A stretch of DNA of 64,000 bases, from the IMG/VR virus record IMGVR_UViG_3300028833_000003. One strand, 5' to 3'. Positions 10,301-35,371 of this stretch are shown in pieces; positions within the stretch are counted from its first letter, which is position 1, and the number at the start of each line of letters is the position of its first letter. The notes below the pieces were generated by a model, which was given only the letters and a program-made list of their open reading frames with translations, made no database searches and had not been told where the DNA came from. The position numbers and the translations under genes were made by a program. This stretch comes from a virus.

Positions 10301-13300
10301 TCATATATGTACGTAAAATATCACTTGCAGAACCTGCAGTAGCATATTTGTCACCAAACATAGCAAGCATAGTATTACGTGTATCTTCGTTGTTTAATAA
10401 TTTTCCATTTTCATCTATGTTTTCTGATAAAAAACGCTAAAAAGTACGCTAATGCTCCCATTGCTATTTAGCCTAATCAACATCTTCTACACCCATTCGT
10501 TCTTGCATAAAAGCATTCTATGAATCTGTAATAATAGTATTTAAATCTACCATTCCATCTTCATATTGTTGCCACCAATTATCATAACCTGTGCTTATTT
10601 GCTCCATTAAAGTCGCCATTTGTGCGGCTTTTTCAGAAGAAGACATTTTATTCCATTCTTGAGTATTAAAAATTTCTCCTAATCCTAATAAATCACTTAC
10701 TATTGGTAGCTATGCCGCAAAACTATCTATATCAAATTCACCAGAATATCTATTACCCCATTGAGCCAATAAGCCTGTTGCAGTTTGTGCTTTTGCTTGT
10801 TGCTATAATAATTGAGGAACTCGTTTGTCCATTAAATCACCATTATTATCTAAAAATGGTGCTATATTAGCCATATAAGACCAATCTTTATCAGTAAAAC
10901 CCCACTGCTCTAATTTTTTCTACGCTTCTTCTTTTGTCATTTTTTTATTACGAGTTGTCATTGCAGTTACAGCAGATTCTTTATTAGCAACCGTTGCATC
11001 TGCCGCAGCTATATCACTTTCTGATACACCGACTAATCCTCTGGCATAAGTAGTTACTAATTGACTAGCTTGTTTTTTAGCTGCTCGAGTAATAGCATCA
11101 TTTTTATTACTATCTATGCCCCAGTCTGCTAATAAACCTTCAACTAAACTCTCCTATACATCAGAACTCCATCCTTCAACATTTTGTTGTTTTAGCCAAT
11201 CCTAGCCTTTTAATTCTCTCATACTCTTAATAGCATTAAGATATGGAGAAATCATTTCAGTGATCATGTAATCAATATCTTCAAATGATTGATCATGTAC
11301 TAAAGCTTCTAACTATGATTTCATTCCAGGGTCTTCAATAGTTTTTGCTGCTTCTTTAATTGCTTGTAGCTAATTATAATAATGTAACAATGAATCTAAA
11401 TCAGATTCAATAACTAAGTCATCGGCAGTTCGTGCCATCCCTGTTCCACCCGCGCGCGCACTACCGCCTAAGAATGATTGAATCAAATTATTTTCTTGAT
11501 CGCCTGTTGCATTACCACTAAGCCAATAATCATATTTTCGACTACCAGCATAATCAATATTAATACCATATTGATTAGCTAACATATCTCTTATATTTGC
11601 ATTCTATAAACTTTTTAATAAACCAGATTGTTTCATATTAGTATTAAATGAACTTAATATGTCATTATAAACAACTCCGGTTTTATTCCCTTCATTATTA
11701 TCTCTATATTTGTCTCCCATATTTTCTTTTGCTATTTTAGTAACCTAATTTTCTAAACCATGTTCTGCGCGTCTAACATCAGATTCTGCAGTTTCAATTT
11801 GTTGTTCACGTGCAGCCTCAATAGATTCTTGAATAGCTGCAGTTAATCCTTGATAATTACCAGTAAGTGCCATAACTGCAGCACCCTAAATGCCTAAACT
11901 AGATGCGATATCAGCTAAAGCACTACTATATTCTTGAACAGATAATGCACCTTCTGCAAACTATTTGTTTAATGAGTCAAAAGCATTACTATTAGTCATT
12001 AATTCTTGATTTGATTGTTGATGTTCTTCTAAAATTTTATTTGTAGTTTCTGCCATTTTAACCATTTCTTGTTCACGTTTTTCTTGCTAATCTTTCATAT
12101 ACGTAAATACACCAGCAATTGCCATACCAGCCGCTTGAATGCCTGCCATCAATGGTCCTTGTGTTGCAAATGTATTAAGTAATGAACCACCTGCACTAAC
12201 AATAGAAGTTACACCTGCTAATGTATCACCACTTTCAAATGACTTCATAATACCTTGCATAGAAGTAAAACCTTGAACTGCAGCCATGGCTCCTTCTGCA
12301 ACTGTTGCCAAACCCTTAGACAATTTTTGAGCTGCAGCTTCACGAGCATTCAATGCTTGCTCTTCTTCATCTTCCATATCAAAGCCTGCAGTAATCTCTT
12401 CTTGGCCTACCTAACGACCATATTCCTAAGCTCTATGAGCAGAATCTTCACCAACAATGCTACGCATTTCCTGATAAGCTTCATCTAAGTCATCATCAAT
12501 TTGATCACGTAAATGCTCTGCAATAACTCTTCCACGATCAGCTTTAGTAGCTTGATTTTGTTCATTAAAACCAGCACTTTCAAGCCAATCATTCATTTCA
12601 TTTTCGTCTTGCGGTAAAAAATCACGTACTGCTTGAGCCATTGGATTATTCTCATCCATCATAACAGACTCAAAACGCTCTGCAGCCGCTGTACTATCTG
12701 TGTCCTCATTAAAAATTTGATCTATCTATTGATTTACTGCACCACGTAAAGCATTTCCTCTAGCTTCTTCTTGTACTCTATTACCTAATCCACGTATCGC
12801 TGTATTTTGTACATTCTTATCATCTGATTTAAAATCTGCTACCATGTCATCAAGATCACTACCACTATAACCCTGATCAGCATAATAATTTAAAGCATTA
12901 ATATAAGCATCATCACGTAATTTATCAGCAGTACCTGTACCTTCTAATTCAACTAAAGAACCAATTGATAATTCTCTACGAGCTTCATCTGTAATATTGG
13001 CTAAATTAGTTTCATGACCTGCCATGGTTTGCTAACGCTAATTTAAATAATCAATATGCTATTGTAAACGCGCAGCTTCTTGTCCACTCATATGCCCTTG
13101 TCGTAATAATAATTCTTGTTTAGCTATCGCACTTTCACTTCTTGCGTCTGCACTTAATAAACGCATTGTATTTGCAGTATTTGCACTTGTATCTGGTGTT
13201 AATTCACTTTCTCGTCTATCTAAAGCGCTATTATATTCCATATCTGCCGATCTACGTAAAGTTGTTAGATTATCAAATAAATTTCGCTATTGAGTGCCTT

Positions 13301-15041
13301 GTGCAAATTTTTGAGCACCATACTAAGAAATTGCTTGCATCCTTCCGCCATAATTATTTGAATTATTTTGCATATAAGCATTAAATTTTCTATAAGTAGG
13401 AATACCACCAATTGGATGCCCTTCTGAGCCTTTTGCTGCTTTCATGTTGCCCCATGCAGTCCGCAACGTACCACCTTTGCCAAAGAAATTTCCAAATGCC
13501 ATGCTAATACCTGTTAATTTATCTAACATCTATGGTTTAAATGCAGTCATCATCATCTAAGAAATTTTTGCTAATATACCAGGGATACCTCCAAGACCAT
13601 TAACTAAACCTCTAACTGCAGATAACGCTGTTGCCAATGCATTATTAAATCCAACAAGGAATTTATCATTAATTAAATCACCGAAAATAGCTTCTTTACT
13701 TGCTTGTACTCTTTGTTTAGATGCTTTAACAGAATCTTCATAAATTTTCTGCATTTTTTCTAAGCTGCCAGCTGAATTTTGAGCATTTTGCAAATCTTTT
13801 TGATACGTATCCCAGTTTTCAAATAATGCCATTAATTGCGTATATTGACGTTTACCAGCAACAACCTGCGCGATAGCAGTTTTTTGCGCACTGCCCATGG
13901 TCTACCATTTATTACCAAGATCAGTAATAACATCGCCCATATCACGCATATTACCAGTAGCATCTAAAACCTATACACCAATAGAATTTAATGAGCTTGA
14001 AACTTTACCTAAATTAACACCGTCTTCTAATGTTTCACCTAATTTTAAGTCACCCATACGTGCTAAAATAGTTTTAAAAGATGTACCAATTGATTCAGCA
14101 CTTTCACGAGTAACAGAAGATACAGTTGCAACAATAGAAGACATTTGTTCCATACCGACACCAACAGTACTAGCAGTCGCGGCAACTTTCTATAAAGCTG
14201 TTGCAATTTCTTCCATGCTAGTAGCAGTAGTAGAACCTAATTTTGCCATTACATCTACATAACCTTCAAGCTAATCACCGCCTGCTTTATAAGAATTCCA
14301 AACGGCGGTTAGCATTTCTGACATTTCCGCAGCATTAGCTTTGAATGCAGTATTTGCAGCCTTTAAAGTAATTTGTGCTTTCTTTTGTACATCTCTATCA
14401 TTATCACCCTATTGATAATAAATTAATGCTGCATCAGCATATGCTTTTGTTGATGTACTTAAACTTTTTGCCATTACATTTGCTTCTTTTGCAAAATTGC
14501 TCATATCAGAAATAGATTTGCCAGTAACAACACGAATATTATTTAATGAAGTATTTAAATTTTCAATATAGCTAACTGCTCCACTCATAGCAGACTATAA
14601 GCCATGAACCATTTGACTAGCTGCTTGCCATTTCACAGTATTCATTAAAGTTGTGCCAAACTATGCAATAAGACCAGTCGCTTTTTGCGCGGGAATAGTT
14701 GCCTAAGTTAGAACAGAAGACAACTATGAAATTGCCTATTGTCCAGTTGTACCGGCGCGCTAGAAACTGGCAATTAACGTTTGAACATTTGTATTAGCAC
14801 TCGCCAAGCTATTACTTAATGCACTAAAATTAATTTGCCCAGTATTAACATTAACTGCCTATTGTAATGCCTACTATAATTTTGCTGCTTGCTACGCGGC
14901 ATCTGCCATATTTGTATCAATTTTTAAATTTAATCTACTGTTTTGCTGCAATCTTTGTAATGAAGAACTTAATTGTTCAACCTACCGCTATGCAGCACTG
15001 GCATCAGCCTAAATATTAATTTTATACTATACACCAGCCAC
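1383..15041 (-). CDS. giant tail tape measure protein, 4,552 aa, read with TAG as sense codon
   Basis: 19 ORF-track fragments (1494..2174 through 13971..14153) share one frame. I walked every gap codon by codon and found only TAG, never TAA/TGA. GTG 15041 lies 8 nt after AAAGGAG; an in-frame TAA sits upstream at 15063; the first non-TAG stop is TAA 1383. N-terminal part (SIGTSFKTILARMGDLKLGE, AQVVAGKRQYTQLMALFENW) looks like a TP901-type tape measure core. Sits after the major tail protein and chaperone. Confidence 0.85.
8800..9400 (-). repeat. tandem 72-nt (24-aa) beta-type repeat array inside the tape measure gene, at least 8 units
   Basis: Units K-T-I-T-F-x-G-E-F-G-T-Y-T recur with exact 72-nt phase (x codons at 9131, 9059, 8987, 8915, 8843; diverged units further upstream at 9203, 9275, 9347). 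Confidence 0.8.
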
Positions 15042-15070
15042 GTTGCAAACTCCTTTCTCTCTTTATATAA

Positions 15071-15104
15071 TAAAAAAATCGTCTAATATTATGTATTAGA
15101 CGAT
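15071..15104 (-). terminator. intrinsic terminator/attenuator between chaperone gene and tape measure start
   Basis: Perfect 11-bp stem ATCGTCTAATA/TATTAGACGAT (15078-15104), 5-nt loop, followed on the minus strand by U7 (A-run 15072-15078 on plus); lies between TAA 15116 and RBS/GTG 15041. Confidence 0.6.
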
Positions 15105-15115
15105 TTCATTTTTTC

Positions 15116-15640
15116 TTAACCTATTTTATCTAAAATTTCTTTAACCGTAGTTAATTTTTCTGGGTCTTCAATTTTTTCAATTGTTTTATCAATATCATCT
15201 TTTGCAATCGCATAATCTGCATTAATCATATTAATCATACCAGCTAATGAATTATTATAAGAAACAATATTATTCGCACATTTCTAAGCAGCGTCCCATA
15301 ATAATTCATGTTCTCTTGTGGGAATTGCTTTAATTACACTATCATAAACATGATTAAGTTCTAATGCATCAAATACTTTACTAATATTTTCTAATTGCTT
15401 ATCAGTAATATTAATATTAGTATAATAACGAATTAATAAAACTTTAAACCAAATTTCTAATCGCATTGGGTTATAAGCACCAGTAGAATCAATAGTATAT
15501 GATAATAATTCACTAATCAACTGTGCTTTATCATCTACTGATAAATACTAAATTACATTAATTTCTGTATCTCCTATTTTTATAATCACAGGTTCAACTG
15601 ATTTAATGGGTGTTACTTTTGAAAAAGCAACTTTCGCCAT
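15116..15640 (-). CDS. tail assembly chaperone-like protein (174 aa), contains TAG sense codons
   Basis: ATG 15640 behind AAGGAG; in-frame TAG at 15548 and 15284; ends TAA 15116; assignment by position immediately upstream of tape measure. Confidence 0.65.
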
Positions 15641-15702
15641 AATAACATCTCCTTTATCTCAATACTTATTTATAATATACCATATTTTTTTTATTTTGTC
15701 AA

Positions 15703-16944
15703 TTATGAATCTGCGATAGACGCTAAAGTAGATTTTGAAATTTCAGTTATCCAATCTCCTTTTTGTTTATGTATCATTTCATTAACTTGAGTATAGATTT
15801 TGCTAATAATTTCTGCTGTACTAATAACATAAATGTTTGCACTACCAGGATCATTATATACTAAATAATTAGCACCTAAATCACCAATACCATCTTTCTT
15901 TAATTCATTTCTAATAATTTCGTCTACATAAGTTTGACCTCGACCTGTTAATTCATAAATAACACGTAACTACTATAAAGCTAATCGTACATCTTCACGA
16001 TGAGTATTACGAGCATAATAAAAAATACTAATTGAAACACCATAAGGAAATCGAGTATTAAGCAGATCTAAATAAACACGTTTACTTTTTGTCTAACCAA
16101 AATGAACTGAACGTACTCTTGACTAAATGGCATTTGTAATACCTGTCGCGGCGTCTTTAATATATGATAAACTATTATAGTTTTTTGCAGTAAAATAAGC
16201 TTTATGCAATAATTTAGCAATATGCATTAATTTAGATCCGGCGGTTGCAGTAATTGTTAATTCAACTGCATGTCCATTCACATCGACTTTACCATTAACA
16301 GTAGTTGTTACAAAATCATCGGCAGATGTTCGTTCATCAAACAGGCGTTTAATTTTATCTGCTTCCTCTTGTACTGCAGCATTAGCAAGATCACTTATTG
16401 CTCCATCAATCATACTACGCAATGGAGTATGCGCACCTTTCGTACTTACTGAATGCCCCATAACATTTACTTTTGCGGCACCAAAAATAACATCATTTAA
16501 ATTGGCATTTTTTGCTCCTCCAAACTACTAAGTCGCCATACTGATAGCCGCCAATTCGCCTTCTAAAACATCACCTTGCGTCCAACCTTTAGACTTCAAA
16601 CCAGTGCGAGTAAAAAAACCTCTGCCACTAGCGCCAATAACAGAACCCGCTTCTTGTAAAATCTAACTTAAAGCTTGTTGCTAAATACCACTTTTTAATG
16701 ATATATTCTCAAAACCCTTATTACCTTTATTAGATAAATTTTTTAAATCACGAAAAAAATCTTGCAATTCTCTTGCTTCAGCAGCACTACCTGCTCCTTC
16801 AACTGCTCCGTGACTATTACCAAGACCATTCATAATATTATTATACTCGCTCATTAATTCATCACGCATCGCAGTTAATGCTTGATAAGGATCTAATCCT
16901 TCATATGCTTTATATCGTTCACCTAAGTGTAATAATCTTGGCAT
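15703..16944 (-). CDS. hypothetical tail-associated structural protein (413 aa), contains TAG sense codons
   Basis: ATG 16944; ORF-track fragments 16681..16944 and 16123..16461 are in one frame; gaps contain only TAG; ends TAA 15703. Confidence 0.7.
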
Positions 16945-16962: not shown

Positions 16963-16997
16963 AAAAAAAATGGGGACGAGCTTTTTTGCTCGTCCCC
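16963..16997 (-). terminator. intrinsic terminator after major tail protein gene
   Basis: Stem GGGGACGAGC/GCTCGTCCCC (16972-16997), T6 loop, followed on minus strand by U8 (A8 16963-16970 on plus). Confidence 0.7.
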
Positions 16998-17016
16998 ATT
17001 TGTATTATATCAATAA

Positions 17017-18099
17017 TTATTCACCAAAACGCTTTGGAGGTTCCTTACCAGAATCTTCATAAATGTCGCCTGGGAATTTAGTATCACCCTCAACTGCGCC
17101 ACGAGTTGAACCATCATAAAGTGCAGTATCTTCAACAATCTGAAGAGCAGCAATTACTTTCTTGGTCTTATCAAACTTAGTATAGTCTGGGAAAGCATCC
17201 ATTGTGAAAGTAAAGGTAGAAGGATCACCAGTAGGTGCCATTGTGAAGGTAAAGTTAGACTGAACCTTGCAGTTAGGAATGATAAATTCAGCAGGATAGT
17301 CTTCACCAGTTGCTTCATCACGGAACAAAGTAGAAGCTTCAAGATAATAAGAACCACCGAACTTACCAGCTTCAATATCAATCTGCTTTACATACTGAGT
17401 GCTCTTTACATAATAGTCAATATAAAGAACAGAACCTGGATCATCGCCCATGCCATTAACGTAGTCATATACTTCCTGTGGATTCTTAGCATCCTTATAA
17501 GCATCTACGTTTGCTTGGAACTCAGTGCCAATAGGAGCATGAGCATCCATGATCTTACCAGCGACCAATAATTCATTATGAGCAGCATTATAAGCAGCAG
17601 CCCAATGAGCAAAGATTTCTTCAACGTTCATTTCCTTAGCAATATCATCACGTTGAATTTCCATAGGAATACGATTGGTATTAATAGAACCATCAGCATT
17701 CTTCAACATAATATACATGCTACCACCCTTGGCTGGCTCATGAGCAAGAGTAATCTTACCTGCTTTAATCTGAACCTGCTCAGTAGTATGTACATAAATA
17801 GGATGATCTTCATCAGCATCCATGAAACCAGCACCAGAAAGAATTGAGAAGCTTTCTGGACTAATCAAAGCATCTTCCATTGTAAATGTTACAGTACGGT
17901 CGCCTTCCCAAGCTACCAAGCGAGGATTACCTTTACCGCCCTGAGCATAAACAGTTGTGCTCTGGCCTTCCAAAGAAGAAGTCTTCAATGTTTCAAAATA
18001 TAACACAGGCATATCCTTGTCAAGATACAACTTACCGAAGAAACCTGCTGCCTTACGACGAAGTACAACATCGCAAATTTCGCGTACGCCAAATCTCAT
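17017..18099 (-). CDS. major tail (tube) protein, 360 aa, TAG-free
   Basis: ATG 18099 8 nt after AGGAGG (the ORF-track start 18138 is upstream of the RBS); GC-richer codon usage; flanked by a strong terminator; upstream of chaperone and tape measure; product by position and beta-rich sequence. Confidence 0.7.
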   Translation of the reverse strand: MRFGVREICDVVLRRKAAGFFGKLYLDKDMPVLYFETLKTSSLEGQSTTVYAQGGKGNPRLVAWEGDRTVTFTMEDALISPESFSILSGAGFMDADEDHPIYVHTTEQVQIKAGKITLAHEPAKGGSMYIMLKNADGSINTNRIPMEIQRDDIAKEMNVEEIFAHWAAAYNAAHNELLVAGKIMDAHAPIGTEFQANVDAYKDAKNPQEVYDYVNGMGDDPGSVLYIDYYVKSTQYVKQIDIEAGKFGGSYYLEASTLFRDEATGEDYPAEFIIPNCKVQSNFTFTMAPTGDPSTFTFTMDAFPDYTKFDKTKKVIAALQIVEDTALYDGSTRGAVEGDTKFPGDIYEDSGKEPPKRFGE

Positions 18100-18116
18100 A
18101 TGCGTTTCCTCCTTAA

Positions 18117-18875
18117 TTAATGTAAACTTTTCATCCAATCGTCTGGTTTACTGTCGGGTTTTCCGCCAGCCAAACGTGATCTTATATCTAAATCCCACCC
18201 GACATATAAGCCGTATCTCTCAATCAAATCATAGAGCTGATAGACCGTAAGATTAAGGCAATCATCCAGACTCATGGATTCCAGAGCAATGGTGAGAATA
18301 GAAACATATCTAGATAAAACACCATCATTACCACCCGAGCCTCTACGCCGAGCAGCTTCACTACGACCCTTCATTAATTTCGCCGCAATTGCAGCAGCTT
18401 TATTACCTTTTGGATTATAATTTGAGTTCTAACCACCAGTCGCATTATTTAATCCACACACTTCTGTTAGAATTGCTTGCACAGTATCAAAATTATTTTC
18501 ATCAAGAGTAAAAGAATGTTTTGTCGTAGCGTTATTAAAAAAAACTCCCATAGGTAAAAACTATGCAGTATATCCTGGGAAAAACAACATAAACAGTTGT
18601 TCGATGGTATTTTTCCGCTTCCCCGAATCCTAAATATTCGGGTTAGCTACTAATGTCATAAATATCTAAAAATTATTAAGGGCGGCTAAACTAGAAGCGC
18701 CCTATCCTGTCTAAGATGCTAAAAGCACTTTTCGATTAAAACACACTAACTATAAGGCTAAAAAATATTCTTCTTCACCAATTAATGCAATTTCCGCGAT
18801 TTTAGGCTAGTGGATTGTAGTCTATAACTCAACTACTGGGATATTAGTCCCAGCCATTAAAGCTAATGAATTCAT
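18117..18875 (-). CDS. hypothetical neck/tail-completion protein (252 aa), contains TAG sense codons
   Basis: ATG 18875 overlaps the TGA of the preceding gene (ATGA coupling); alternative ATG 18857; frame has only TAG interruptions; ends TAA 18117. Confidence 0.65.
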
Positions 18876-19405
18876 AATAATGGGTTCCGCTAATCTTCTT
18901 CTCCGTGAATAGCTTCATAAGTTAAACATAAACCCATCAACTAATCATTAAGTAAAAGATTGCGCCCAGTTAAGAATTGAGTTTCCCCAATTCCAGTTAA
19001 TTTTTTCTTATTGAAAAGACTATCAATTTCACCAGCAATCTTATAAGGACGTAACTAAAAATTGCCTAAATTCCAATGATCAGGATGACAAAGAATGTCA
19101 AATTCAATAATACAATCTCGATACACTGGATTCTTTTTATTTGGCTAAAAATTATCCATTGAAATTAATACGTAATTAGGACACTCAGTAGAAACTTCTA
19201 GCTAAGGAACTATACGTATCTACTTATGAATCATAGAATATTTTTGTTCTTGTGTTAAATCATTTGCTTTTAAACAATCTTTTTCAGTATAATAAAGTAA
19301 TTTCATTAAACGTTGATCTTCCATCATTTTTTGAATAATCAACGCCAAATCTTTATCGACCGCCAAGAAACTTGATTTAGGAAAATAATCTTGCCCAACA
19401 ATCAT
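18872..19405 (-). CDS. hypothetical head-tail joining/neck protein (177 aa), contains TAG sense codons
   Basis: ATG 19405 behind AAGGAGGAG; fragment 19220..19405 continues in frame through TAGs to TGA 18872. Confidence 0.7.
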
Positions 19406-19422
19406 ATTAACTCCTCCTTTAA

Positions 19423-20388
19423 TTAAAACAATGATTCAACAACAATAGTTTTATGTAAATCTTCAATTAGCATATCATTATGAAATACAATTTCAAATTC
19501 ACCACTAACCATTGGCAACCATTTTACAATTAAACCATTATCTTGTTCATCTACTCGCCATTCAACTACATCATCAATATCTTTATTCTAAGATGTTGAT
19601 ACTACTGACCAGTCACCGCGAATACGACGATTTACATTATATTTAACTTCCTATCTTGGCTTAATAAATACTTCACCATCAATAGAAACATCAAATATAT
19701 TCTGCTTAGGAGGATTAGGATCGGTAGGCTCAATTATATATTCATCTCCATGACATTCATAATCTTCTTCTGCGACTATTTCTAAAATACCGGGTGTACT
19801 AATACTGTCAGGAGCCTGAACTTTCCAATATCTACCTTCAAATTCAAAGCGTTGATAACGTTCTAGCGCACGTATTGTTTCCTCAGTGCGTTTTACATAT
19901 ATGTCAAGAGTTAAATTAGGTACATCAGCAGCAATACCGTGCTTTTGAATTGTATTAATTTTAGTTTCAACAGGCCCGCGCACAGCCATCCATAAACCAA
20001 ATTTTTCTTTAGTTTCTGGATCAGTAACTTCAACCCACTAGGCTCTGCGGCAATTTCCTCTAAAATATGCCAATTCAGTTAATTCTTGTTTGAGTATTAG
20101 CCAATGAATACCAGACTCTTTTGGCCATTCAAAACTATCTCCTGGCTTAAAATCATATCGCCAATCAACAGAGATAATCTTTTCATCATAGTCAAATTTT
20201 ACTTTATCAGGATTAATTAATGCTAATACCCATTCACTGTCTTCTTCATCTTTTTTAATCCAAGCATGTTGATAAGAATAAAGAAGCGCACGATGGAATG
20301 AACGTCTTTTATCTCGAACCATGCGGTCATGTTGGCGGTCATTAACCGCGGCACGTGCGCGAGCGCGCAAATTATCTAGTGCGTCCAT
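19423..20388 (-). CDS. hypothetical structural protein (321 aa), contains TAG sense codons
   Basis: Fragments 20038..20388 and 19651..19989 are in the same frame, joined by TAG; ends TAA 19423. Confidence 0.7.
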
Positions 20389-20644
20389 CTAACTAATTCG
20401 CTAAATCAGTTAATAGTGAAATTGCACTAAAAACTGTTTTGCGATATATCATAAAATCGGCTTCGTCAAGCAGACCATACAATTCAGTAACAAATACTAA
20501 AAAGTCTAATTCACCGCCAAATATTTTGTCTAACCCACGAAGTTCAAGTAATACAGTTTTAATCTATCCTTGCCAATCCTCTTGATTTTCACGCATCGGC
20601 AATAATTTCCAAATCTGATTGACCAGACGACGCAAATCGGTCAC
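20372..20644 (-). CDS. small hypothetical protein (90 aa), one TAG
   Basis: GTG 20644 after AGGTG; fills the gap between flanking genes; overlaps the next start by 17 nt; weak support. Confidence 0.4.
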
Positions 20645-20669
20645 TACAACACCTGGTTCAAATTTGAAC

Positions 20670-21251
20670 TCAGTTGTTTCTGATTGCTTCCCACTTGCCA
20701 TAATCAATACCATTATCGCTATCTGCGTCGCCAGATCCTTCATGAATAATCTTAACAGTACCAGCTAATGCAGCTTCTTCTTGCTTTGGAATAGCACTAT
20801 CATTAAGCATATGCCAATTAGACATAACATGTCCAGTTTCTGGTACAATTTTACGCCGCTTATATAAACGTTGTGCGTGAATATTCTCGCGCCACACCTC
20901 AGTCTTTAAATTTAAAAGCTTCGCAAGATGATTAGCTTGCGAAGTAAATTTAAAATCTGAACCGCTATATTTCATGCGTGTATTTTCAATAGAAGAAATC
21001 TGTCGGTCCAACCATACGACTTTCATTAAAATAGCGAAAATATTAATTTCTTCTCTGGTTAAATCAACATTGTATTGCTCTTGATCTGCGTCATAATCAT
21101 ATAGAGCAAATCTTGGAAATTCAAAGTAGGATATGGCATCTAATAGAATCTATTTACAATCACGAATAGTATCTTCCTCAGTCAATTCCAAATACTAATC
21201 ATCTGTAATTTTACCAAGGAAGGCATTATAAATAGTTTCAAATGATGTCAT
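20670..21251 (-). CDS. head-tail connector/adaptor-like protein (193 aa), contains TAG sense codons
   Basis: ATG 21251 behind GGGGGAG; fragment 20670..21026 extends upstream through two TAGs; N-terminus MTSFETIYNAFLGKITDD resembles gp6-type adaptor N-termini (recall only); ends TGA 20670. Confidence 0.6.
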
Positions 21252-21252
21252 A

Positions 21253-21852
21253 TTACTCCCCCTTTGCCTCTTCTTTCTGCACTACTTTATACTGAGGAGT
21301 AGTGCGGCGACCACTAGTTTTAGTTTCGGCCTATACTCTACGGGTAGGTGCAGCCTTTACTTCCATACCACTATCAGTAGTATTTGCTTCTTCAGCCTGC
21401 GCAGCTTCAACTTCTGCCTTATGCTGCAAAGCAAGCGTTATATCAAAACCAGTCTTTGCTTTAAGAGCTTCGCGCTTACGCGCATCATTGCAAGGCAATT
21501 CATAAGAATATTTCTTGATTAAATCTATTACACCATCAGGCGCAAAATCAAGGCAATCAAGGAATGCTTCAACGCTACCATTTTGAATTAAATCAATAAC
21601 GCCTTTTTCATCCAAATAATATTCAGGTTCAATCCGAATAGGCATTTCCTTCACTACTTCTGTATCTTCAATAAATAGACTATCACGAAGCATTACAGTA
21701 CCACCTGGAACAAAACTTAAAGCATCCAACTCTTCACGAGTAAGATTTTTTACTTCGCCAGGCTACCATTCGCGGCGAATGCCCATATCTGGAATCGTAT
21801 AAATAAGCATTCTACTACTGCGATTACGCACTTTAATTTTATTGTCTGCCAT
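21253..21852 (-). CDS. hypothetical head-associated protein (199 aa), contains TAG sense codons
   Basis: ATG 21852 behind AAGGAG; in-frame TAG at 21763 and 21331; ends TAA 21253 inside the RBS of the next gene. Confidence 0.65.
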
Positions 21853-21884
21853 ATTTTTTTACTCCTTTTTCTCTTAAATTAGGA

Positions 21885-21902
21885 CCGCCGCACTGGCGGC
21901 GG
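21885..21902 (-). terminator. GC hairpin after capsid gene (possible partial terminator or RNA stabiliser)
   Basis: 7-bp all-GC stem CCGCCGC/GCGGCGG with 4-nt loop, 17 nt after the capsid gene stop; no clear U-run. Confidence 0.35.
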
Positions 21903-21918
21903 CCCTTATATATGATTA

Positions 21919-22974
21919 TTAATCGCCCGTTTCATTTGCAGAACGTGTAACATTCAATTGACCTTTAAGAGCATCGTCGATATATACGCAGATGTCTGGA
22001 GTCATAACAACACCAACGCCTACTTTCTTATAGACCTGAATTTCACGGCTGCGATCCTTATTGACATATTCATCAACAATAGTGCTACCTTCCATAACAA
22101 CCTTGGCAGGCTTTACAGCACCTGGAAGAATATAGCAATAACCTGGGTCAATAACCTTTGTCTGATGAGTTGCATCAGTGAAGCCCTGTGGAAGAATAGT
22201 AATAGGATGATTCTTATAAGAAGCAAAACGACCATTATTCCAAATAGTATCCTTCATATTGTCAGAATACATAGCAGCATTAGCAGGACGAATCTTAGAA
22301 GCAAATTCTTCAGTGCAATAAATGGTAGGAGTACCATAAGCTGCAGCGATAGAAATTAAACGATCAAATGCTGCTTCATCCCAACCAGTAACTTCAGCAG
22401 TATTAAGAGCTGGAAGCTGATTCAAACCAGTCTTCAAAGCCTGACCGATTTCCCAATAAATGAGTTCGTCAAGACCTTCCATAACAATACGAGTTACCTC
22501 AGCAAAATCAGCACGACCATCAAGGAACTCTTCCAAACCAATCTGAGCGGCACCGCCGATAGCACTGGTCTGTACTTCGATAGGCGTATCTTTACCAAGC
22601 TTAAATACTTCGTAAATACCAGCCAAACCGACCTTGGTGATGAACTGCTTTGCACGCTGACGATCATGCCAACGCATAAAGATAGCCTTGTCACCCTGAG
22701 CCATGGTCTTTACTTCGGCAAACTTGCCATATTCCTGCTCAACTTTACGAGGAAGAACATCATCCATGGTCTGTTCGATTAATTCAAAGATAGTATTCTT
22801 ATTTTCACGATAAAGAGCAAAAGTGCCTGCATACTCATTGAGTTCTTTACGAAGGGTCTCATTGAGTGCATCATAGGTGAGATTCTCACCATTAAATGAA
22901 TATGCAACAGGAGCAGAGCGATCGGCCTTAGCTGTTGCCTTCATCAATTGAAGAAGTTCTTTCTTATCCAACAT
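21919..22974 (-). CDS. major capsid protein (351 aa), TAG-free
   Basis: ATG 22974 9 nt after GGAG; GC-richer codon usage; size and position after portal/protease-scaffold; followed by hairpin; ends TAA. Confidence 0.6.
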   Translation of the reverse strand: MLDKKELLQLMKATAKADRSAPVAYSFNGENLTYDALNETLRKELNEYAGTFALYRENKNTIFELIEQTMDDVLPRKVEQEYGKFAEVKTMAQGDKAIFMRWHDRQRAKQFITKVGLAGIYEVFKLGKDTPIEVQTSAIGGAAQIGLEEFLDGRADFAEVTRIVMEGLDELIYWEIGQALKTGLNQLPALNTAEVTGWDEAAFDRLISIAAAYGTPTIYCTEEFASKIRPANAAMYSDNMKDTIWNNGRFASYKNHPITILPQGFTDATHQTKVIDPGYCYILPGAVKPAKVVMEGSTIVDEYVNKDRSREIQVYKKVGVGVVMTPDICVYIDDALKGQLNVTRSANETGD

Positions 22975-22994
22975 TGTCAATCTCTCCTTTCCTA

Positions 22995-23744
22995 TTACTG
23001 AAGTCTCATAATTTTAACAGCTGGTTGCATATCGCCAAGATTATAAACCTTAACTACCTGCCATACCATACCAGCAGGAAGAGCAGGAGCATTTTCACCA
23101 CTAGGAGCGGTAACCTTAACAAGATAACCATCTTCGCCTGGGGCCAAAAGATCACCACGAGCTAAAGAACCTGGATCTGCTTTAATGCAGTTAGTAGTAA
23201 AAATATCACCCTCATGAGTCTTAAAGAGACGAGGTACCATAATACCCTGGGTATCAGTAAAGAGCTGTGGCTGATTTAATACTTCAACTTCATACTTGTT
23301 ACCAATAGCAAAATGATTACGACCAAAATCTTCACCAGGATAGGTTTCGGTATGTCCATCTGGATAAATCTCACTATTAGCACCAATAGTCTTCATCAAA
23401 GGATTAAGATCAACATTATTAGCACCGGTTACACCAACTGGGCTATAAACAGAGCCGGTATAGTCACGACGGATCATTGCGAAGTCCTGATCGGTTTCGC
23501 CCTTGGCATAAACCTTTACTTCGTTATAAACTAACATCCACTCGCCCTTGCCGGTAAAATTGACTACATTATTAGCATAGTCATACTTTGCAAACTGACC
23601 ATTCTCAAGAATCTTAATATTCTTAGCTGCTGGCAACTGTGCATAAATCTCGCCAGTGCGCTGTGCAGACAAATGGTTAGGTTCAACCTGACCGAAGCCA
23701 TAAGTTACATAAGTGGCTACCGGTGAAAGTCTTTTAAAAGCCAT
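22995..23744 (-). CDS. capsid-associated protein (decoration or second head component), 249 aa, TAG-free
   Basis: ATG 23744 behind AAGGAGGAAG; between scaffold/protease and capsid genes; beta-rich sequence; ends TAA. Confidence 0.55.
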   Translation of the reverse strand: MAFKRLSPVATYVTYGFGQVEPNHLSAQRTGEIYAQLPAAKNIKILENGQFAKYDYANNVVNFTGKGEWMLVYNEVKVYAKGETDQDFAMIRRDYTGSVYSPVGVTGANNVDLNPLMKTIGANSEIYPDGHTETYPGEDFGRNHFAIGNKYEVEVLNQPQLFTDTQGIMVPRLFKTHEGDIFTTNCIKADPGSLARGDLLAPGEDGYLVKVTAPSGENAPALPAGMVWQVVKVYNLGDMQPAVKIMRLQ

Positions 23745-23765
23745 TGTAGCTTCCTCCTTTATTTA

Positions 23766-25103
23766 TTACATATTTTTGGCGGTTTCGCGCACGGCCTTAA
23801 TCCAGGCAGGAGCGTTATCTGACTCGCCCGTTTCATCTAAATTGAAAGTGAAGTCTTTTTCAGGCTTCTTTTCAGTATCAAGGTCGAAACTTACCTTGTT
23901 ACGAACACAAAGAATACATAATTTAGCTTCAATATCGTCCAAAGAATATTCATCAATCTTTGAAACTACATCAGCCTTATCGGCATCTGTAAGCATATAG
24001 AAACTATCAATCATGTCTTGCTTAGCCTTGCGATCGGCATCAGCCTTGAACTTGCGCAATGGCTCAAGTTCAGCAGTAAGAGAATTTACCTGCTCTTGAA
24101 GAGAAGCGAACTGTGATTGAAGATCCTTGTAAAGTTCAGACTCAGTAATCTCTTCATCAGAAAGAGAATGCTTGGTCTTTTTCTTCTTTTTATCTTCGTC
24201 TTCATCATCTTCTGGTTCAGACTTGTCATCCTCACCATCGCCTTTATCAGATGCGGGCTTGTCTTCTTCCTTCTTCTTTTCATCAGAAGGATCTTCGCCT
24301 TTATCTTCTGGCTTGTCCTCGTTTTCTTCCTCGTCCTTGGGCTTCTTCTTAAATTCAGTATCATCGTCCAAGGGGAGGTTCTCTTCAACAGGAGGATTTA
24401 ATTTTTCATTCTCATTGTCCATGTGAGCATTTCCTCCTTTTTCCAGCATTGCTTTAATTTCCCCGACCATAGCATACATTGTCTGCTTAAAGTCATCATC
24501 TAGGGAGAATGTTGCAGCAATTCCGGCGCCTTCAAAGCAAGGTTCGCAATCCTCACCGAGAATGCAAAGTTTGGAAATTACTGCCTCATTGATTATAAAA
24601 AATTCAGGCCATCCATTATCGTCAAATGACCAATCTCCGTTAGTAAGACTTTCATCTAACTCCATTGATTGATTATTCCCATTTGTTAAAATACGCTTAG
24701 ATTCTGGATATGCCCCAGTCCAAATCCACCCTTCGGTCATTAGATACTCATGATCTACGCCATCATCAGTGAATGTTTGAAACCATACTTTTGCGTTCAT
24801 ATCTACAAATCCATAAGGACGTGTAGTATCAACAATTCTTATGCCATCGCCACGAATTTCTAAGTTCTTATTATGCTGCTCAAAATCATCTTTGTTTTCA
24901 TTATAAAAACCAACGATTGGGCAGCCCGGCAAAGACTTAGCCATTTCAGTCGCAACAGCCTTGGTGATAACACTACCATTGCGGTTAGGTTCATCACCCA
25001 CATAACATACTTTAATTTCACAATGTGAAATTAAAGGATTAACGGGAGTAAAATTCAATAATGAAATTGTATTTTCCCGCGGTATGCTTATATGACGAGC
25101 CAT
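23766..25103 (-). CDS. prohead protease/scaffold-type fusion protein (445 aa), TAG-free
   Basis: ATG 25103 behind AAGGAGGGAG. The N-terminal ~200 aa globular domain resembles XkdF-type phage proteins (recall). It is followed by a long D/E/K-rich linker and a coiled-coil C-terminus typical of scaffolds. Sits directly after portal. Confidence 0.55.
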   Translation of the reverse strand: MARHISIPRENTISLLNFTPVNPLISHCEIKVCYVGDEPNRNGSVITKAVATEMAKSLPGCPIVGFYNENKDDFEQHNKNLEIRGDGIRIVDTTRPYGFVDMNAKVWFQTFTDDGVDHEYLMTEGWIWTGAYPESKRILTNGNNQSMELDESLTNGDWSFDDNGWPEFFIINEAVISKLCILGEDCEPCFEGAGIAATFSLDDDFKQTMYAMVGEIKAMLEKGGNAHMDNENEKLNPPVEENLPLDDDTEFKKKPKDEEENEDKPEDKGEDPSDEKKKEEDKPASDKGDGEDDKSEPEDDEDEDKKKKKTKHSLSDEEITESELYKDLQSQFASLQEQVNSLTAELEPLRKFKADADRKAKQDMIDSFYMLTDADKADVVSKIDEYSLDDIEAKLCILCVRNKVSFDLDTEKKPEKDFTFNLDETGESDNAPAWIKAVRETAKNM

Positions 25104-25115: not shown

Positions 25116-26717
25116 TTAACCTTGTGAATTCTTATTAGCGATAGTTTTATCTGATTTTTCACTATCAGCTTTTTCTGGTCGCCCACCTGTATTACTATCA
25201 GATTTGGCCGTTTTACTCTAACTTACTTCGCCCGCAGTTTTACCACTAGAACCAACTGCTTTACCAGACATAGTAGAAGACATCATTGGCGGTATCATAA
25301 TATCAGACAAATGAAGTATCTCATTCTCGAAATGAGCAGTAGCTAAAATAGAACTCTGCCGTTGTCCCATAGCAACAAGAGGTAACATTTTAGAATAACC
25401 AATCTGCACTAATTCTTTATAGAATTTCGCAACTTCTTGGTAATTATAAATGGTAGTTTCTAACATATAGCTGCGGAAACTATACCGTTTATTTGGGGGA
25501 CACTTTTTAGTTATCATTTTATTAAGGAAGGCTTCATACTGTAACAATAAGTTACGCATAGTGGCTTCATCGTTTAAAATAGATGATTGCAAAGCGATGT
25601 TTCCATCACTATTGAATAAATTTTGTGAAACACCAAATTCATTATAGACTTGTCTCTCAATCTTCTCCAAACCATCCGCCGCGGCAGCAGTGCTATTTGA
25701 GTCAGCCATATCTGCAACATCAACGTCCGCAAAGGTAGTTAATACATCAACACCGACCGCACGTTTTAACATACTAACTGCATTATTATGAATATCACGT
25801 GCTTCATCAACGTCGAATATTAAATCACCATTTTTATCAAGAGGCAATTTCTAAATCAATACTTTTAATAACTATTGCATGGTCTTACGACGGTCTAAAT
25901 CCTGCGCCTAGTCTAAATCAATTAATGTAGGAATAGAATTAACCAAAATTGGCATATCCGACCCATTTAAATTAAATTTAAACGCGGCAGCTGTATCCAA
26001 CAAATACCAACCTTCACTATCACCAATGCCATCGCCCATTAGCTTATGCCGCTTATATAATAAATATCCTTCTTGGAAATCTTCTGGGAACATTTTCAAA
26101 ATCTTCATACGATAAACCGCATCAGGAAATTTATCATCAAAGAAGCGCATATTAAATTCAATAGCCGGCATCCCAGCTTTAAAATAGCGACTGCGGCAAT
26201 AATCAGTTGGTAGCTCTTGAATTGTCATACAGTCTTTGGTATCAACCCAATAACCATAATAACAACCATCTCGAATAACCTTTAATGCAATATCGCCAAA
26301 TACTTTTTTGAGATTAGAATTATCTAAATAAGTAAGTATTCGCGCAAATTCTGTCAGCACTTTATCTTCTTTTAATTTATCATCTTCGATAATATATGGC
26401 GTAACATAATAATCATAACGATAAAGGAAGGCGAAGTATTTACATAAACGTTCATAAATACCAGATATATCATAGAAATATTGTGATACTAAACGTTGAG
26501 TTGCATAATCTTTTTGCGCGAGTGCTTTTAAAATAAAATTCTTATCTGCATAAGTACGATTGTTTTTCTTTAATGAGCCAAGGTCCAATATAGCATCTTC
26601 CAAATTTTGTAAGCCGACTTTAATTTTACGGAAGTCTATACTGTCATAATGAGGTGCGACAACTGGCTCAGACATAGAAAATCCTTTGGCTTTAATTTCA
26701 TCCTAATTTCTTGGCAA
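25116..26717 (-). CDS. portal protein (about 533 aa), contains TAG sense codons
   Basis: Fragments 25908..26675 and 25218..25847 are in the same frame, joined by TAG-only gaps; TTG 26717 lies 8 nt after GGAGG (alternative ATG 26675); ends TAA 25116; size and position after terminase. Confidence 0.7.
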
Positions 26718-26730
26718 TCATCTCACCTCC

Positions 26731-27087
26731 TTAGTATCCAGCTTTTTTCATAATATAATCATAACTTAACAAATGTTCTTCTGTATAAGGAATTTCTATT
26801 AATTTATATCCATTCAAAGCACAAAAACGTCGTTTTAAATTATCATTATACTACTGTTGGAAAAATCCTTTTTTACCACCATATTTGGCAGAAGGCTAAT
26901 AATGCTATTTTCCTTGATACTCTATTAAAAAATCTATTTCTCCATCATCATCAAATACACAAAAATCAAATTTTAATGGTCTTCCACTTGTACTTACTAA
27001 TCCTGCAAATTGCTGCTCCATAGTAAAATTAGCATCAGCTGCTTCTAGGATTTCGCGGATAGTAATTTCTCCTCTACTTGCATTCAT
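26731..27087 (-). CDS. small PD-(D/E)XK-type endonuclease-like protein (118 aa), contains TAG sense codons
   Basis: ATG 27087; three in-frame TAG; read as Gln gives FDFCVFDDDGEIDFLIEYQGKQHYQPSAKYGG...LIEIPY, a pattern I recall from small endonuclease-like proteins; ends TAA 26731. Confidence 0.55.
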
Positions 27088-27091
27088 ATCT

Positions 27092-28828
27092 TTAACTCCC
27101 CTCAGTAAAAAACATCATATCACTAAGTCGCCCACGCTTACGTTTTTTACTATCCTCTTCCTACTTAATGTAGTATAATCCGTATTCAAATGCTGAAAAC
27201 TTATCCTTGCGGATAGTATTATTTGCACGCTTTAAAATGATATTAACACCTTCATTTTCTTCGCGCAAATTCATCATTTCTTCTTTCAATATGGAAGTCA
27301 AAGTAAATGGTTTAAGATATTCTGCCCTTTCTTCGGGTTTCATCTCTTGTCCGCGTTTTGTTCCCATTAATTTATTTTTAGCAGCTCGCTCACTAATTAA
27401 CATTTTTACACGCCCTGATGATAACTGAGTTTGTGCATTTGCGTGAGCCTCAGTGTTAATAGGCGCATTTGCTTTAATTAAATAAAGTGCATCATACTCG
27501 CAATTATTAGTTTGATACTTTTTATAATAATTATCTTCATCATTATAAACACCAAAATCTGGGTATGTATCATTTGTGTCTGGATCTACTTGACCTTTAA
27601 TCATATAATCGACTAGACCAATACCCAAACCGTTAGCATCAATTACTATACGCTTAGCTTTAAATTTATAATATAATTTCTTTAAATAAATTGCCTAATC
27701 TTCAAAGTGTTCATCTGACATTGTAAAAATATTTACTAATGTTTTAATAGATGCGCCAGCACTTTGCGGCGTTACTTTAAATACACAAACAACAGAATCA
27801 CAACCTTTGCGGCCAACATCAACAGAGAGTACATAATATGCTGTACTACGAGAACGTCCAGAATACTCATACTCTGGCTAATTTAATTTACGATTACGTT
27901 CAAATTGTTCGCTATTGAAGAAAGCATCTTCAACTGTGCCAGACCATTTAGACTCATACTCTCTATCAAAAGATGACTCATTAAATGTACCATCCATTTT
28001 TAAGTCTTTAATAAATGACTTAGAAAGCAAGCCCATGATAACTGGGATGCGCCAGGTTCCGCCCATAATAAATGCTTTATCTGGGTCGATAATCTATTGT
28101 ACCAATAGCGTCATCAACTTATCGTAAGCAAATGTATTCTTCCATCCTGCTGTTGTAATATATAATTGTGATTTATTTAAAGTTTCCTCTTCGCGCACCT
28201 CGCCGCTAGCGCAACGTCGCGCAACGTTCATTGTAGGAATTATAACTTCGTTTAAGATTGTACCATCAACACCAACGCACTCTTCAACAACACCGGCATG
28301 ACGACGCTTACCACGCGAGGTATCTCTTGCCGCAATATTGTCAAACCAAGAGCCATTGTAAAAAACGTATTTACAGTAGTCTTTGCCTTCCATTGTTTTT
28401 CCTCGGCGGAAATCAATTTCGTGCGCGAAAGCTGGTATTAATGTACAAATTTCAGAAACTTTTTCTTTCATAATGCCGCTGGCCTGCTCTTTACCGCCAG
28501 AGGTAACGAATAAATGCGCACCTGGGTACAAGATACAACGAATAATAAGTATCATAACGGCTAAGAATGATTTAGAATAAGCACGAGGGAATACTGCATA
28601 CACGTATTTTTTACGCATCGCCGCACGCATGAACACTCTTTGGTAATAAAATAACTAAAAATTATTAGGATTACCAAATTGTAGCATAAAATCTACAAAT
28701 AAATCTGGGTATTCACGCCAAAAAGCAACATATTGGCGCGCGATGGGTATAATAGCCCTTACGCGCTCCTCAGATAATCCTATTTTATTTAAATCATTGC
28801 GCAAATTGAGTAAATCACTTAATGCCAT
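27092..28828 (-). CDS. terL: terminase large subunit (578 aa), contains TAG sense codons
   Basis: ATG 28828 behind GAGGTGG. Fragments 28094..28636, 27878..28066 and 27161..27628 are in one frame, joined by TAG. ATPase part (PRAYSKSF..., ITTAGWKN) is followed by an RNaseH-like nuclease part (YVLSVDVGRKG, IVIDANGLGIGLVD). Ends TAA 27092. Confidence 0.85.
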
Positions 28829-28839
28829 TAGACCACCTC

Positions 28840-30009: not shown

Positions 30010-30011
30010 AA

Positions 30012-31851: not shown

Positions 31852-32181
31852 ATGAAGAACAACGACTGGTGGTCCATCGCGTGCATTATTACATTAGTTA
31901 TCATCACTGTTATTGTGAGCCTGGGTGTGGGCATGTCAATCCAGAAAAGAGACATGGTAAATCGGCTTTACCCCAATGTGGCTTATGTGGTTGAGATAGA
32001 CCGCGCAACAGATACCCTAACAGTGGAAGACTCAATAGGCCATCTGTGGAGCGTGCAAGGTGTAGAAGACTACATACTGGGCGACTTGGTAGGCATGGTC
32101 ATGGACAGTATGGGCACAGACTTAGTGTATGATGATGAAGTGGTCAAGATGCACTATTGTGGAGGATGGAACGAAGTATAA
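31852..32181 (+). CDS. small membrane-anchored protein (109 aa)
   Basis: Promoter -35 at 31793, AAGGAG RBS, ATG 31852 (ORF-track start 31807 lies inside the promoter); N-terminal TM helix. Confidence 0.75.
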   Translation: MKNNDWWSIACIITLVIITVIVSLGVGMSIQKRDMVNRLYPNVAYVVEIDRATDTLTVEDSIGHLWSVQGVEDYILGDLVGMVMDSMGTDLVYDDEVVKMHYCGGWNEV

Positions 32182-32286
32182 TAAAAAAATTTTTAAAAAA
32201 GTATTGACATTAATATTCATTTGTGATATACTTTAATCAAGGTAAGGGAAGTGCTTACCGGAAACAGTTAAGAGGAGGACATTACA

Positions 32287-32493: not shown

Positions 32494-32575
32494 AAAAAAT
32501 TAAAAAAACCTATTGACAAATCCCGAAACCCGTGTTATAATGAGCATGTAAAAAGGAAACAGGGAGGACAAACAA

Positions 32576-32761: not shown

Positions 32762-32828
32762 AAAAAGTATTGACAAAAAGAACGTTGTGTGTTATAATAA
32801 GACCATCAAGAGAGAGGAGACTAAGACA

Positions 32829-33048: not shown

Positions 33049-33057
33049 CCTTTCGCC

Positions 33058-35350: not shown

Positions 35351-35371
35351 TCCGCGGCCCTTTGCTTTGGG

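Follow-up and report, generated by a model that had tools for sequence, protein, structure and literature searches.

Introduction

In the published recoded phages (PMC7886860; Borges et al.), the codon TAG is read as glutamine (Gln) in structural genes, the early and replication genes keep the standard code, and an array of transfer RNA (tRNA) genes is carried. The same arrangement is encountered in the gut phage described here, which is represented by 64,000 nucleotides of DNA (IMG/VR virus record IMGVR_UViG_3300028833_000003); this whole stretch is called the window in the following. The analysis is concerned with four genes of its late, minus-strand cluster, namely those of the tail tube, the major capsid protein, a capsid-adjacent protein and a putative scaffold, from which the recoded codon is entirely absent, and with the explanations that may account for its absence.

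Agate and zeta-crAss phages comprise TAG-recoded, TGA-recoded and standard-code members at short distances from each other. This also applies to the family of the window phage, whose mixture of codes resembles the description of Agate. A link to phAss-1 (PMC10607447; GenBank OQ749652; proposed Phassvirus group), which uses code 15, is given by a capsid protein of 50% identity and by synteny of the head/tail module, although the window phage is larger (169 kilobases (kb) or more) and only distantly related. According to its authors, phAss-1 possesses three tRNA-Sup(CTA) genes, and suppressor TAG codons occur in TerL and in the tape measure gene; the paper (PMC10607447) is silent on an exemption of capsid and tube. 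In the phAss-1 sequence, the homologues of the capsid, capsid-adjacent, scaffold and tube genes are TAG-free, while terminase, portal and connectors carry TAG.

Likeness to the SPbeta-like phages (Bacillus SPbeta, Enterococcus EF1/VRE9, Staphylococcus) is seen in the gene order, which runs YonG, terminase, portal (YonE position), YonD, YonC position, YonB, YomV, YomU tube, tape measure, as well as in capsid homology of 24-36% and in the strong Shine-Dalgarno sequences that are shared. The cultured members of this group use the standard code, whereas the window phage is metagenomic. Its structural module is, judging from family assignments, of the SPbeta type, since close homologues of the cluster bear Pfam families named after Bacillus phage SPbeta proteins (YonG_N, YonD_N, YonB, YomV_2nd, YomU_Tube, YomW). 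The genome would comprise 169 kb or more; a contig deposited at ENA (ERZ27257202:k141_292341; 168,974 base pairs (bp)) is identical to the window over 13,934 nucleotides. A search of GenBank phage nucleotide sequences with the window returned distant fragments only.

TAG Avoidance in Four Late Genes

The four genes lie on the minus strand at positions 17017-18099 (tail tube, 361 codons), 21919-22974 (major capsid protein, 352 codons), 22995-23744 (capsid-adjacent gene, 250 codons) and 23766-25103 (scaffold, 446 codons). They had been described as free of TAG in a first-pass annotation made from the letters of the window, and this is borne out: each is an intact standard-code open reading frame (ORF) at these coordinates with 0 in-frame TAG, 1,409 codons being covered in total. 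None of their 45 Gln codons is TAG, as against 172 of 526 in the other late genes (Fisher p=7e-8), and at the rate of the neighbours about 23 TAG codons would be expected (P(0)=1e-10). Outside the reading frame, too, the trinucleotide TAG is scarcer in the four genes than in the other late genes, by a factor of about 2.7; after correction for this, some 10 in-frame TAG are still expected. Thirty-five CAG codons of the four genes sit one transition from TAG, and none of them has changed. A low Gln content was considered as the cause of the absence and was rejected, Gln making up 2-4.4% of the four proteins. The avoidance of TAG is real and statistically robust.

In the neighbouring genes TAG is needed as a sense codon. 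Coding on the minus strand from 31082 to position 1 is sensible only on this assumption; the stretch covered by ORFs of at least 150 codons grows from 33 kb in the standard code to 63 kb once TAG no longer counts as a stop, and read-through of TAG restores the portal gene (25116-26675), the large terminase gene (27092-28828) and an ORF of 4,509 codons with 99 in-frame TAG (1383-14909). The complete late genes terminate in TAA or TGA in 17 of 17 cases. Judging from aligned relatives, TAG is glutamine in the late genes of the window phage, because the residue found at its TAG sites in relatives that do not recode TAG is most commonly Gln (778 instances, followed by Glu with 420 and Lys with 274) and because a capsid TAG of one relative, L043, falls on an invariant Gln144. 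The density in the neighbours amounts to 8-36 TAG per 1,000 codons, that is, roughly one per 50-70 codons; the earlier figure of one in every 25-40 codons was too dense.

Codon Usage and Base Composition

That the two gene sets might show no significant difference in codon usage had been considered in the first-pass annotation as an outcome that would speak against it; the codon shares in fact differ sharply. The four genes use AAG for 75% of their lysines (other late genes, 18%), CAG for 78% of their glutamines (7%), CTT for 44% (13%) and TTA for 17% (64%) of their leucines, CGT for 69% of their arginines (37%), GCT for 62% of their alanines (35%) and ACC for 25% of their threonines (7%). Glutamine in the other late genes is encoded by CAA (60%), TAG (33%) and CAG (7%).

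The accompanying statement that the four genes are richer in G and C stands for overall content, with a GC fraction of 0.407 versus 0.347 (Mann-Whitney p=0.012), but not for the emphasis on codon endings. The first codon positions (GC1, 0.543 versus 0.460, p=0.018), which reflect amino-acid composition, add as much to the difference as the third positions (GC3, 0.314 versus 0.248, p=0.06), and the highest GC3 values of the cluster belong to two TAG-using genes, 28840-30009 (0.38) and 30012-31082 (0.45). Neither was the proposal of two codon regimes within one operon upheld. The bias is graded across genes and does not fall into two discrete states, because the AAG share of lysine codons (AAG/Lys) and the TAG share of glutamine codons (TAG/Gln) covary continuously across 18 genes of the window (Spearman rho=-0.73, p=6e-4).

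On the plus strand, 0 of 20 genes examined end in TAG, and the genes between 35.6 and 60.6 kb contain a single TAG in 4,378 codons. These presumably early or middle genes are GC3-richer, and many of them favour CAG and AAG.

Comparison across Relatives

For comparison, 80 IMG/VR loci sharing the capsid gene at 49-85% identity were collected and dereplicated to 53 representatives. Gene order is conserved in 80 of 80 loci, and the family comprises TAG-recoded, TGA-recoded and standard-code members. Within 14 TAG-recoded lineages, the capsid, capsid-adjacent and tube genes together hold 5 TAG among 437 Gln codons, the scaffold gene 26 among 169, and the other late genes 661 among 2114. The picture repeats itself with another codon in 17 TGA-recoded lineages, where the corresponding counts of TGA among tryptophan (Trp) codons are 5 of 106, 5 of 56 and 286 of 561 (p=4e-22 for the other late genes versus the capsid, capsid-adjacent and tube set); since the related genomes are not independent, such pooled p-values overstate the case, although the separate TAG and TGA clades and the deep TAG lineages give some independence.

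At the level of gene families, the capsid-adjacent, tube and capsid genes have a TAG/Gln of 0.006-0.017, compared with 0.035 for the gene 3' of capsid, 0.15 for the scaffold and 0.25-0.49 for most others, so that the scaffold gene and gene 21253-21852 are intermediate. TAG/Gln is again inversely related to AAG bias when gene families are pooled over relatives (rho=-0.74, p=8e-4). The scaffold gene had been counted among the exempt genes; this is correct for the window, where it has no TAG, but relatives carry 0-4 TAG each in it. The closest relatives, L084 (portal 99%, capsid 96% identical) and L082, have TAG-free capsid, capsid-adjacent and tube genes.

The codon bias itself is independent of recoding and would reflect high expression, because the standard-code relatives show the same preference for AAG, CAG and CTT in their capsid, capsid-adjacent and tube genes; in the standard-code locus L023, AAG reaches 0.86 versus 0.32 and CAG 0.95 versus 0.32. 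This same locus has a few TAG in the homologue of gene 18117 and in the tape measure gene, with none elsewhere, which resembles an incipient stage of TAG recoding. In the TGA clade, which is AT-rich, the genes in question lean to AAA, CAA and TTA and their GC3 is not raised; TGA is still avoided. GC content was rejected as a cause on these grounds. Judged from the loci compared, strong codon selection and avoidance of the recoded codon are general across the family, and GC-richness is not.

Identity of the Four Gene Products

The assignment of 17017-18099 to the major tail protein agrees with the family evidence: the protein matches phrog_2729 ("virion structural protein"), and its L082 homologue, 59% identical, bears the tail-tube family PF27173 YomU_Tube. 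This YomU-like gene has 9 CAG and 2 CAA codons, an AAG/Lys of 0.83 and an AAGGAGG Shine-Dalgarno sequence of -11.1 kcal/mol.

For 21919-22974, the major capsid protein proposed at first could be corroborated. Homologues bear PF27364 YonB, and more distant ones from Bacillus phages carry the annotation major capsid protein; the gene occupies the expected place in a head module of the order portal, YonD-like gene, capsid-adjacent gene, capsid, connectors; and a predicted model points to the HK97 fold. An AlphaFold2 model built from a 49-sequence alignment has moderate confidence (predicted local distance difference test (pLDDT) 65, predicted template modelling score (pTM) 0.52). With Foldseek it gave 259 matches in the PDB at E<=1e-3, with E down to 3e-8, and the best 50 of those listed are without exception capsids of the HK97 fold or encapsulins. 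A single-sequence AlphaFold2 model of the same protein was unusable (pLDDT 39). The gene contains 12 CAG and 2 CAA codons.

The capsid-adjacent gene at 22995-23744, in the YonC position, has 10 CAG codons, one CAA and an AAG/Lys of 0.79. Its product is probably a capsid decoration protein, to judge from position and capsid-like codon bias; no match to a decoration protein was obtained in Pfam, in the PDB or among annotated PHROG families. It evolves at the pace of the portal (57% versus 56% identity to L006) and nevertheless stays TAG-free. In L084, where portal, scaffold and capsid are 99%, 98.7% and 95.8% identical to those of the window, the capsid-adjacent protein is 81.5% identical, which points to a surface-exposed protein that evolves fast or has recombined.

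Gene 23766-25103 had been called protease/scaffold. Of this double designation, a scaffold is plausible from the acidic, coiled-coil-like C-terminal half of the predicted protein, while a protease role is no more than possible; homologues bear PF27290 YonD_N. The PF27xxx families named here are precomputed matches on homologues. When searched directly by sequence, neither the capsid and capsid-adjacent proteins in the PDB nor any of the four proteins in a Pfam release predating these families gave a significant match.

Neighbouring Genes, Hairpins and tRNAs

The minus-strand genes around the four use TAG throughout. At 25116-31082 lie the head and packaging genes, comprising portal, a small ORF, large terminase, a YonG-like gene and a gene of a "sigma factor" family (28 TAG in about 1,965 codons); the portal matches phrog_2739, and the terminase phrog_15503, phrog_24618 and phrog_5909. 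The head-completion, connector and tail-completion genes between capsid and tube (18117-21852), homologues of which bear PF27211 YomV_2nd, contain 22 in-frame TAG. Gene 18117-18875 employs TAG for 9 of its 12 Gln codons, and gene 21253-21852 has 2 TAG in the window and is nearly TAG-free across the family. In the same region, the ORFs 20372-20905 and 20670-21356, between the capsid and connector genes, overlap by about 235 nucleotides, which may reflect either two overlapping genes or a site of frameshifting.

The tail genes 3' of the tube gene (1383-16944, minus strand) have the most AT-rich codon use of the cluster (AAG/Lys 0.06-0.12), with 8 TAG in 15703-16944, 2 in 15116-15640 and 99 in the tape-measure ORF 1383-14909. 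A homologue of the latter (4,493 amino acids) bears PF10145 PhageMin_Tail. On the minus strand, these 99 TAG lie in one ORF, 1383-15062, that is about 4,500 codons long; the ATG at 14909 lacks a Shine-Dalgarno site and the true start may lie elsewhere. Its length, about twice that of the SPbeta tape measure, would imply a very long tail.

A terminator-like hairpin lies directly 3' of the tube gene at 16968-17001 (minus strand), with a 14-bp stem including 8 GC pairs and followed by a T-run. Directly 3' of the capsid gene, at 21882-21905 (minus strand), a GC-rich hairpin is found with the 10-bp stem GGGCCGCCGC/GCGGCGGTCC, a loop of 4 nucleotides and a weak T-tract. Both are conserved: across the family, the 70 nucleotides past the tube stop have a median minimum free energy (MFE) of -18.9 kcal/mol, 89% being at or below -15, and those past the capsid stop one of -19.0 kcal/mol, whereas most other junctions range from -6 to -12. 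The first-pass annotation had singled out the capsid and tube genes as the ones followed by hairpins. This is right for both, but there is a further strong hairpin at 15075-15107 (minus strand), AT-rich, with a stem of 14 bp and a T-run, which lies between the TAG-using gene 15116-15640 and the tape-measure ORF and is likewise conserved (median MFE -16.5 kcal/mol). Their positions suggest that the late cluster is split into transcript segments ending after capsid, tube and the chaperone-position gene 15116-15640. For the two hairpins 3' of capsid and tube, a role in stabilising or attenuating the transcript is probable.

Shine-Dalgarno sequences of the type AAGGAGG, at -9 to -11.7 kcal/mol, precede all four genes and two other genes of the cluster. 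No claim of internal promoters is made, because promoter-like sites are not enriched (78 found versus 68 expected). A near-consensus extended -10 promoter is present at 31136-31108, just upstream of the first gene of the late cluster, 30012-31082 (minus strand; 6 TAG, GC3 0.45). This gene matches phrog_5767, labelled "sigma factor" (E=2e-47); a Pfam search of it found no sigma domain and does not support the label.

The start of the phage tRNA array is situated at 61459-63571 on the plus strand, with 8 tRNA genes in the window, and the array comprises 22 tRNAs on the identical contig stretch L085 (to L085 position 19825). Among its members are tRNA-Gln(CUG) and tRNA-Lys(CUU), which lie within the window and read the codons CAG and AAG favoured by the TAG-free genes. 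The array holds Lys-CUU, Gln-CUG, Glu-CUC, Leu-AAG, Arg-ACG and Thr-GGU and is without Lys-UUU and Gln-UUG. A tRNA scan of 31 related loci revealed no tRNAs near the capsid genes.

Elsewhere in the window, the plus strand from 32000 to 46000 carries many short ORFs (60-200 codons) at a GC content of 0.39-0.48 and with strongly positive AT skew; its confident ORFs are TAG-free. This is probably an early-gene region. Most of four plus-strand ORFs searched between 35.7 and 44.1 kb had no family match. On the minus strand, and apart from the structural cluster, gene 49233-49859 contains 7 TAG in 209 codons and weakly matches a DnaD-like helicase loader (E=5e-4), so that recoding extends beyond the virion genes.

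Proposed Explanation and Alternatives

The absence of TAG from these genes is probably the result of translational selection, by which an inefficiently suppressed codon is removed from the late genes of highest copy number. The major capsid, capsid-adjacent and tube proteins would be the products needed in the largest numbers per virion, and selection on their translation would be the strongest. At each TAG, a suppressor tRNA would compete with the host release factor, so that every such codon would cost yield, slow the ribosome and draw on the suppressor tRNA pool, and termination at TAG would yield truncated subunits that could poison a polymerising lattice. TAG would be avoided by the high-copy genes because this cost grows with the level of expression. 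Such genes would lose TAG and keep CAG together with the other favoured codons AAG, CTT, CGT, GCT and ACC, while in the low-copy genes for portal, terminase, connectors and tape measure TAG would drift in or be tolerated. The codon would thus be removed where about a thousand copies per virion are needed and tolerated where between a few and a dozen suffice; given a tape measure of some 4,500 residues, the tube may contain about as many subunits as the capsid. Strong ribosome-binding sites, and the stable hairpins that follow capsid and tube, would likewise set the high-copy genes apart as sites of intense expression. Expression levels, the incompleteness of suppression and the direction of selection are here inferred from sequence.

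The codon choice of these genes, which is strongly distinct from that of their neighbours in the window and in relatives of any genetic code alike, is what translational selection would lead one to expect. The original proposition, that high-copy proteins are shielded from dependence on suppression and low-copy proteins rely on it, survives in its core, being matched in the 14 TAG-recoded and 17 TGA-recoded lineages, in L084 and L082, and in phAss-1; its framing in terms of GC content, its extension to the scaffold and any claim to be without exception do not, the last on account of L043.

Several observations weigh against this explanation. The copy numbers it invokes are derived from gene identity, and for one of the gene products concerned, the capsid-adjacent protein, no Pfam, PDB or annotated PHROG match was obtained. 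No CUA suppressor tRNA is found among the 8 tRNAs of the window or the 22 of the array, that is, in the window plus 6.5 kb, or about 70 of 169 kb, in which respect the window phage so far differs from phAss-1; the suppressor must be encoded elsewhere in the 169-kb genome or be supplied by the host. The 22 phage tRNAs agree with the favoured codons in 12 of 20 favoured directions only (12 up, 8 down). The shared descent of the relatives has already been mentioned. In crAss-like phages, lysis genes and a tail-tube family are preferentially recoded (Borges et al., preprint), and the avoidance rule is not universal for that reason.

The most direct counter-example is L043. The first-pass annotation had regarded TAG codons in the capsid or tube genes of close relatives as evidence against it, and such codons occur in this single relative, though not in the closest ones. 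All five TAG of the capsid, capsid-adjacent and tube set of the 14 lineages belong to L043, where they stand among 30 Gln codons, versus 70 of 181 elsewhere in the locus. Three are in the capsid gene (L043 10001-11026), one of them at the invariant Gln144, so that capsid genes can carry TAG and the avoidance must be called quantitative, not absolute. L043 is also the most recoded relative: ORFs of at least 150 codons cover 0.22 of it under the standard code, the lowest value among the loci, and CAG is almost extinct, with 3 of about 140 CAA/CAG codons. In a lineage that is most recoded and almost devoid of CAG, the exception fits a quantitative cost.

Among the alternatives, the one that fares best regards TAG density as a built-in translational control which sets virion stoichiometry, each TAG lowering the output of a low-copy gene; suppression would be kept partial on purpose, and the TAG-free genes of the shared long late transcripts would run at full rate. 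It is considered rather unlikely. In its favour, TAG/Gln roughly ranks by expected copy number (0-2% for capsid, capsid-adjacent and tube, 15% for scaffold, 25-49% for portal, terminase and connectors), translational control would be useful in late genes that are co-directional and tightly packed, and selection that enriches or depletes recoded codons per gene family as a means of regulation has been proposed by Borges et al. The TAG sites of the low-copy genes are, however, mostly at variable positions and differ among relatives, as expected of tolerated drift and not of maintained control, and the number of TAG per gene varies widely even among close relatives, from 0 to 20 in the portal. 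This alternative overlaps with translational selection against TAG and differs from it only in that TAG would be selected for in low-copy genes and not merely tolerated. An elaborated version appears unlikely as well, and somewhat more so: the density of the recoded codon would set virion stoichiometry, inefficient decoding would perhaps be a design feature, and the TAG-dependent late factor 30012-31082 would license late transcription. If this gene did encode a late transcription factor, late transcription would depend on suppression, and the TAG-free capsid and tube genes would be gated indirectly.

A quite improbable alternative, given the arrangement of the cluster, is that timing or code compatibility is decisive, so that the capsid, capsid-adjacent and tube genes, like early genes, must be translatable in the standard code. 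The plus-strand genes are indeed nearly TAG-free, GC3-richer and often biased to CAG and AAG, and an early start could pay where large pools of capsid and tube subunits take longest to build. Yet the TAG-free genes are embedded in a co-directional cluster of TAG-dependent genes and no convincing promoter can be assigned to any of them, which makes a timing model less economical; the capsid cannot be assembled without the portal, which is itself TAG-dependent; and neither the graded relation of codon bias nor the same bias in standard-code relatives is predicted by timing.

Constraint or composition might also have produced the pattern incidentally, without selection acting on TAG as such, either because protein conservation leaves few substitutions to create TAG or because the local base composition makes the trinucleotide rare; this is very improbable. 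Such a view would be suited by the facts that no other gene of the cluster is as conserved as that of the capsid, that off-frame TAG is depleted in the four genes and that many TAG sites of other genes are at variable positions. The capsid-adjacent and tube genes, on the other hand, diverge as fast as their TAG-rich neighbours and yet stay TAG-free, the intact CAG codons and the TAG still expected after the off-frame correction are not accounted for, and TGA is avoided in the same genes of a clade in which their composition equals that of the neighbours. Recent recombination of the TAG-free genes from a standard-code phage, which their higher GC content relative to most neighbours and the frequent mosaicism of phage structural modules (capsid-adjacent protein 82% versus portal 99% identical in L084) might suggest, is hardly credible and was rejected as largely refuted, since capsid identity tracks terminase identity (Spearman 0.74) in loci of invariant gene order, the recoded codon is missing from the same gene families in TAG and TGA lineages that are deep and separate, which would require repeated parallel acquisitions, and these genes are not GC-richer in the TGA clade.

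Translational selection against a costly reassigned codon, acting in a recoded phage of a known kind, is left as the best explanation of the feature, and one that relies on known principles. It predicts read-through of less than 100% and a loss of fitness if TAG is put into the capsid gene. In the model in which recoding acts as a switch that blocks late or lytic genes until the suppressor is made, the proteins needed in the highest amounts would escape the block, be the codon TAG or TGA, and recoded codons would be mainly tolerated passengers of low-copy genes or a means to turn these down. The regulatory model of phage recoding is refined in this way; a new kind of system is not at hand. A simple statistic that can be applied to all recoded phage clades is the fraction of Gln or Trp codons that is recoded in each gene family.

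Comparison with Known Systems

Published studies of recoding sought gene families enriched in recoded codons, and in-frame stops in capsid genes were used there as evidence of recoding. The tube and capsid genes of the present family are, by contrast, consistently depleted of the recoded codon, unlike the enriched crAss-like tube family; the word "capsid" does not occur in the preprint of Borges et al. None of the papers on phage recoding that were searched states explicitly that the recoded codon is depleted from phage capsid and tube genes. Cook et al. (PMC11210395) detected a capsid gene in 407 of 715 code-15 genomes under table 11 versus 475 under table 15. These counts are compatible with depletion being common in code-15 phages, and depletion in capsid genes may explain why those of code-15 phages are found under standard-code annotation.

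With regard to codon bias, translational selection on the codon usage of phage structural genes has been described (Lucks et al. 2008, PMC2266997), and the matching of tRNAs to late-gene codons in T4-like phages is cited by Borges et al. In the window phage, too, the bias is strongest in the structural genes of presumably highest copy number, and its Lys-CUU, Gln-CUG, Leu-AAG, Arg-ACG and Thr-GGU tRNAs read codons which these genes favour. The Gln choices of the window phage include a former stop codon, whereby such a bias turns into presence or absence of dependence on suppression.

The nearest parallel comes from ciliates (PMC10553269), where the 10% most highly expressed genes, which are also GC-richer, make less use of the reassigned codons UAA and UAG; the authors suggest that these codons are translated inefficiently or that selection to retain the canonical ones is stronger. 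In that case, the code is fixed in a cellular genome, the release factor has changed and expression was measured, whereas here a virus is set against the unchanged termination of its host. The cost of suppression is expected to be larger in the phage than in the ciliate, because reassignment would compete with this unchanged termination, and in several phage lineages the avoidance is almost total. Recoding of late genes and switching of the code within a family are already known for phages; by analogy, the depletion in capsid and tube genes would extend this knowledge and parallel the situation in ciliates.

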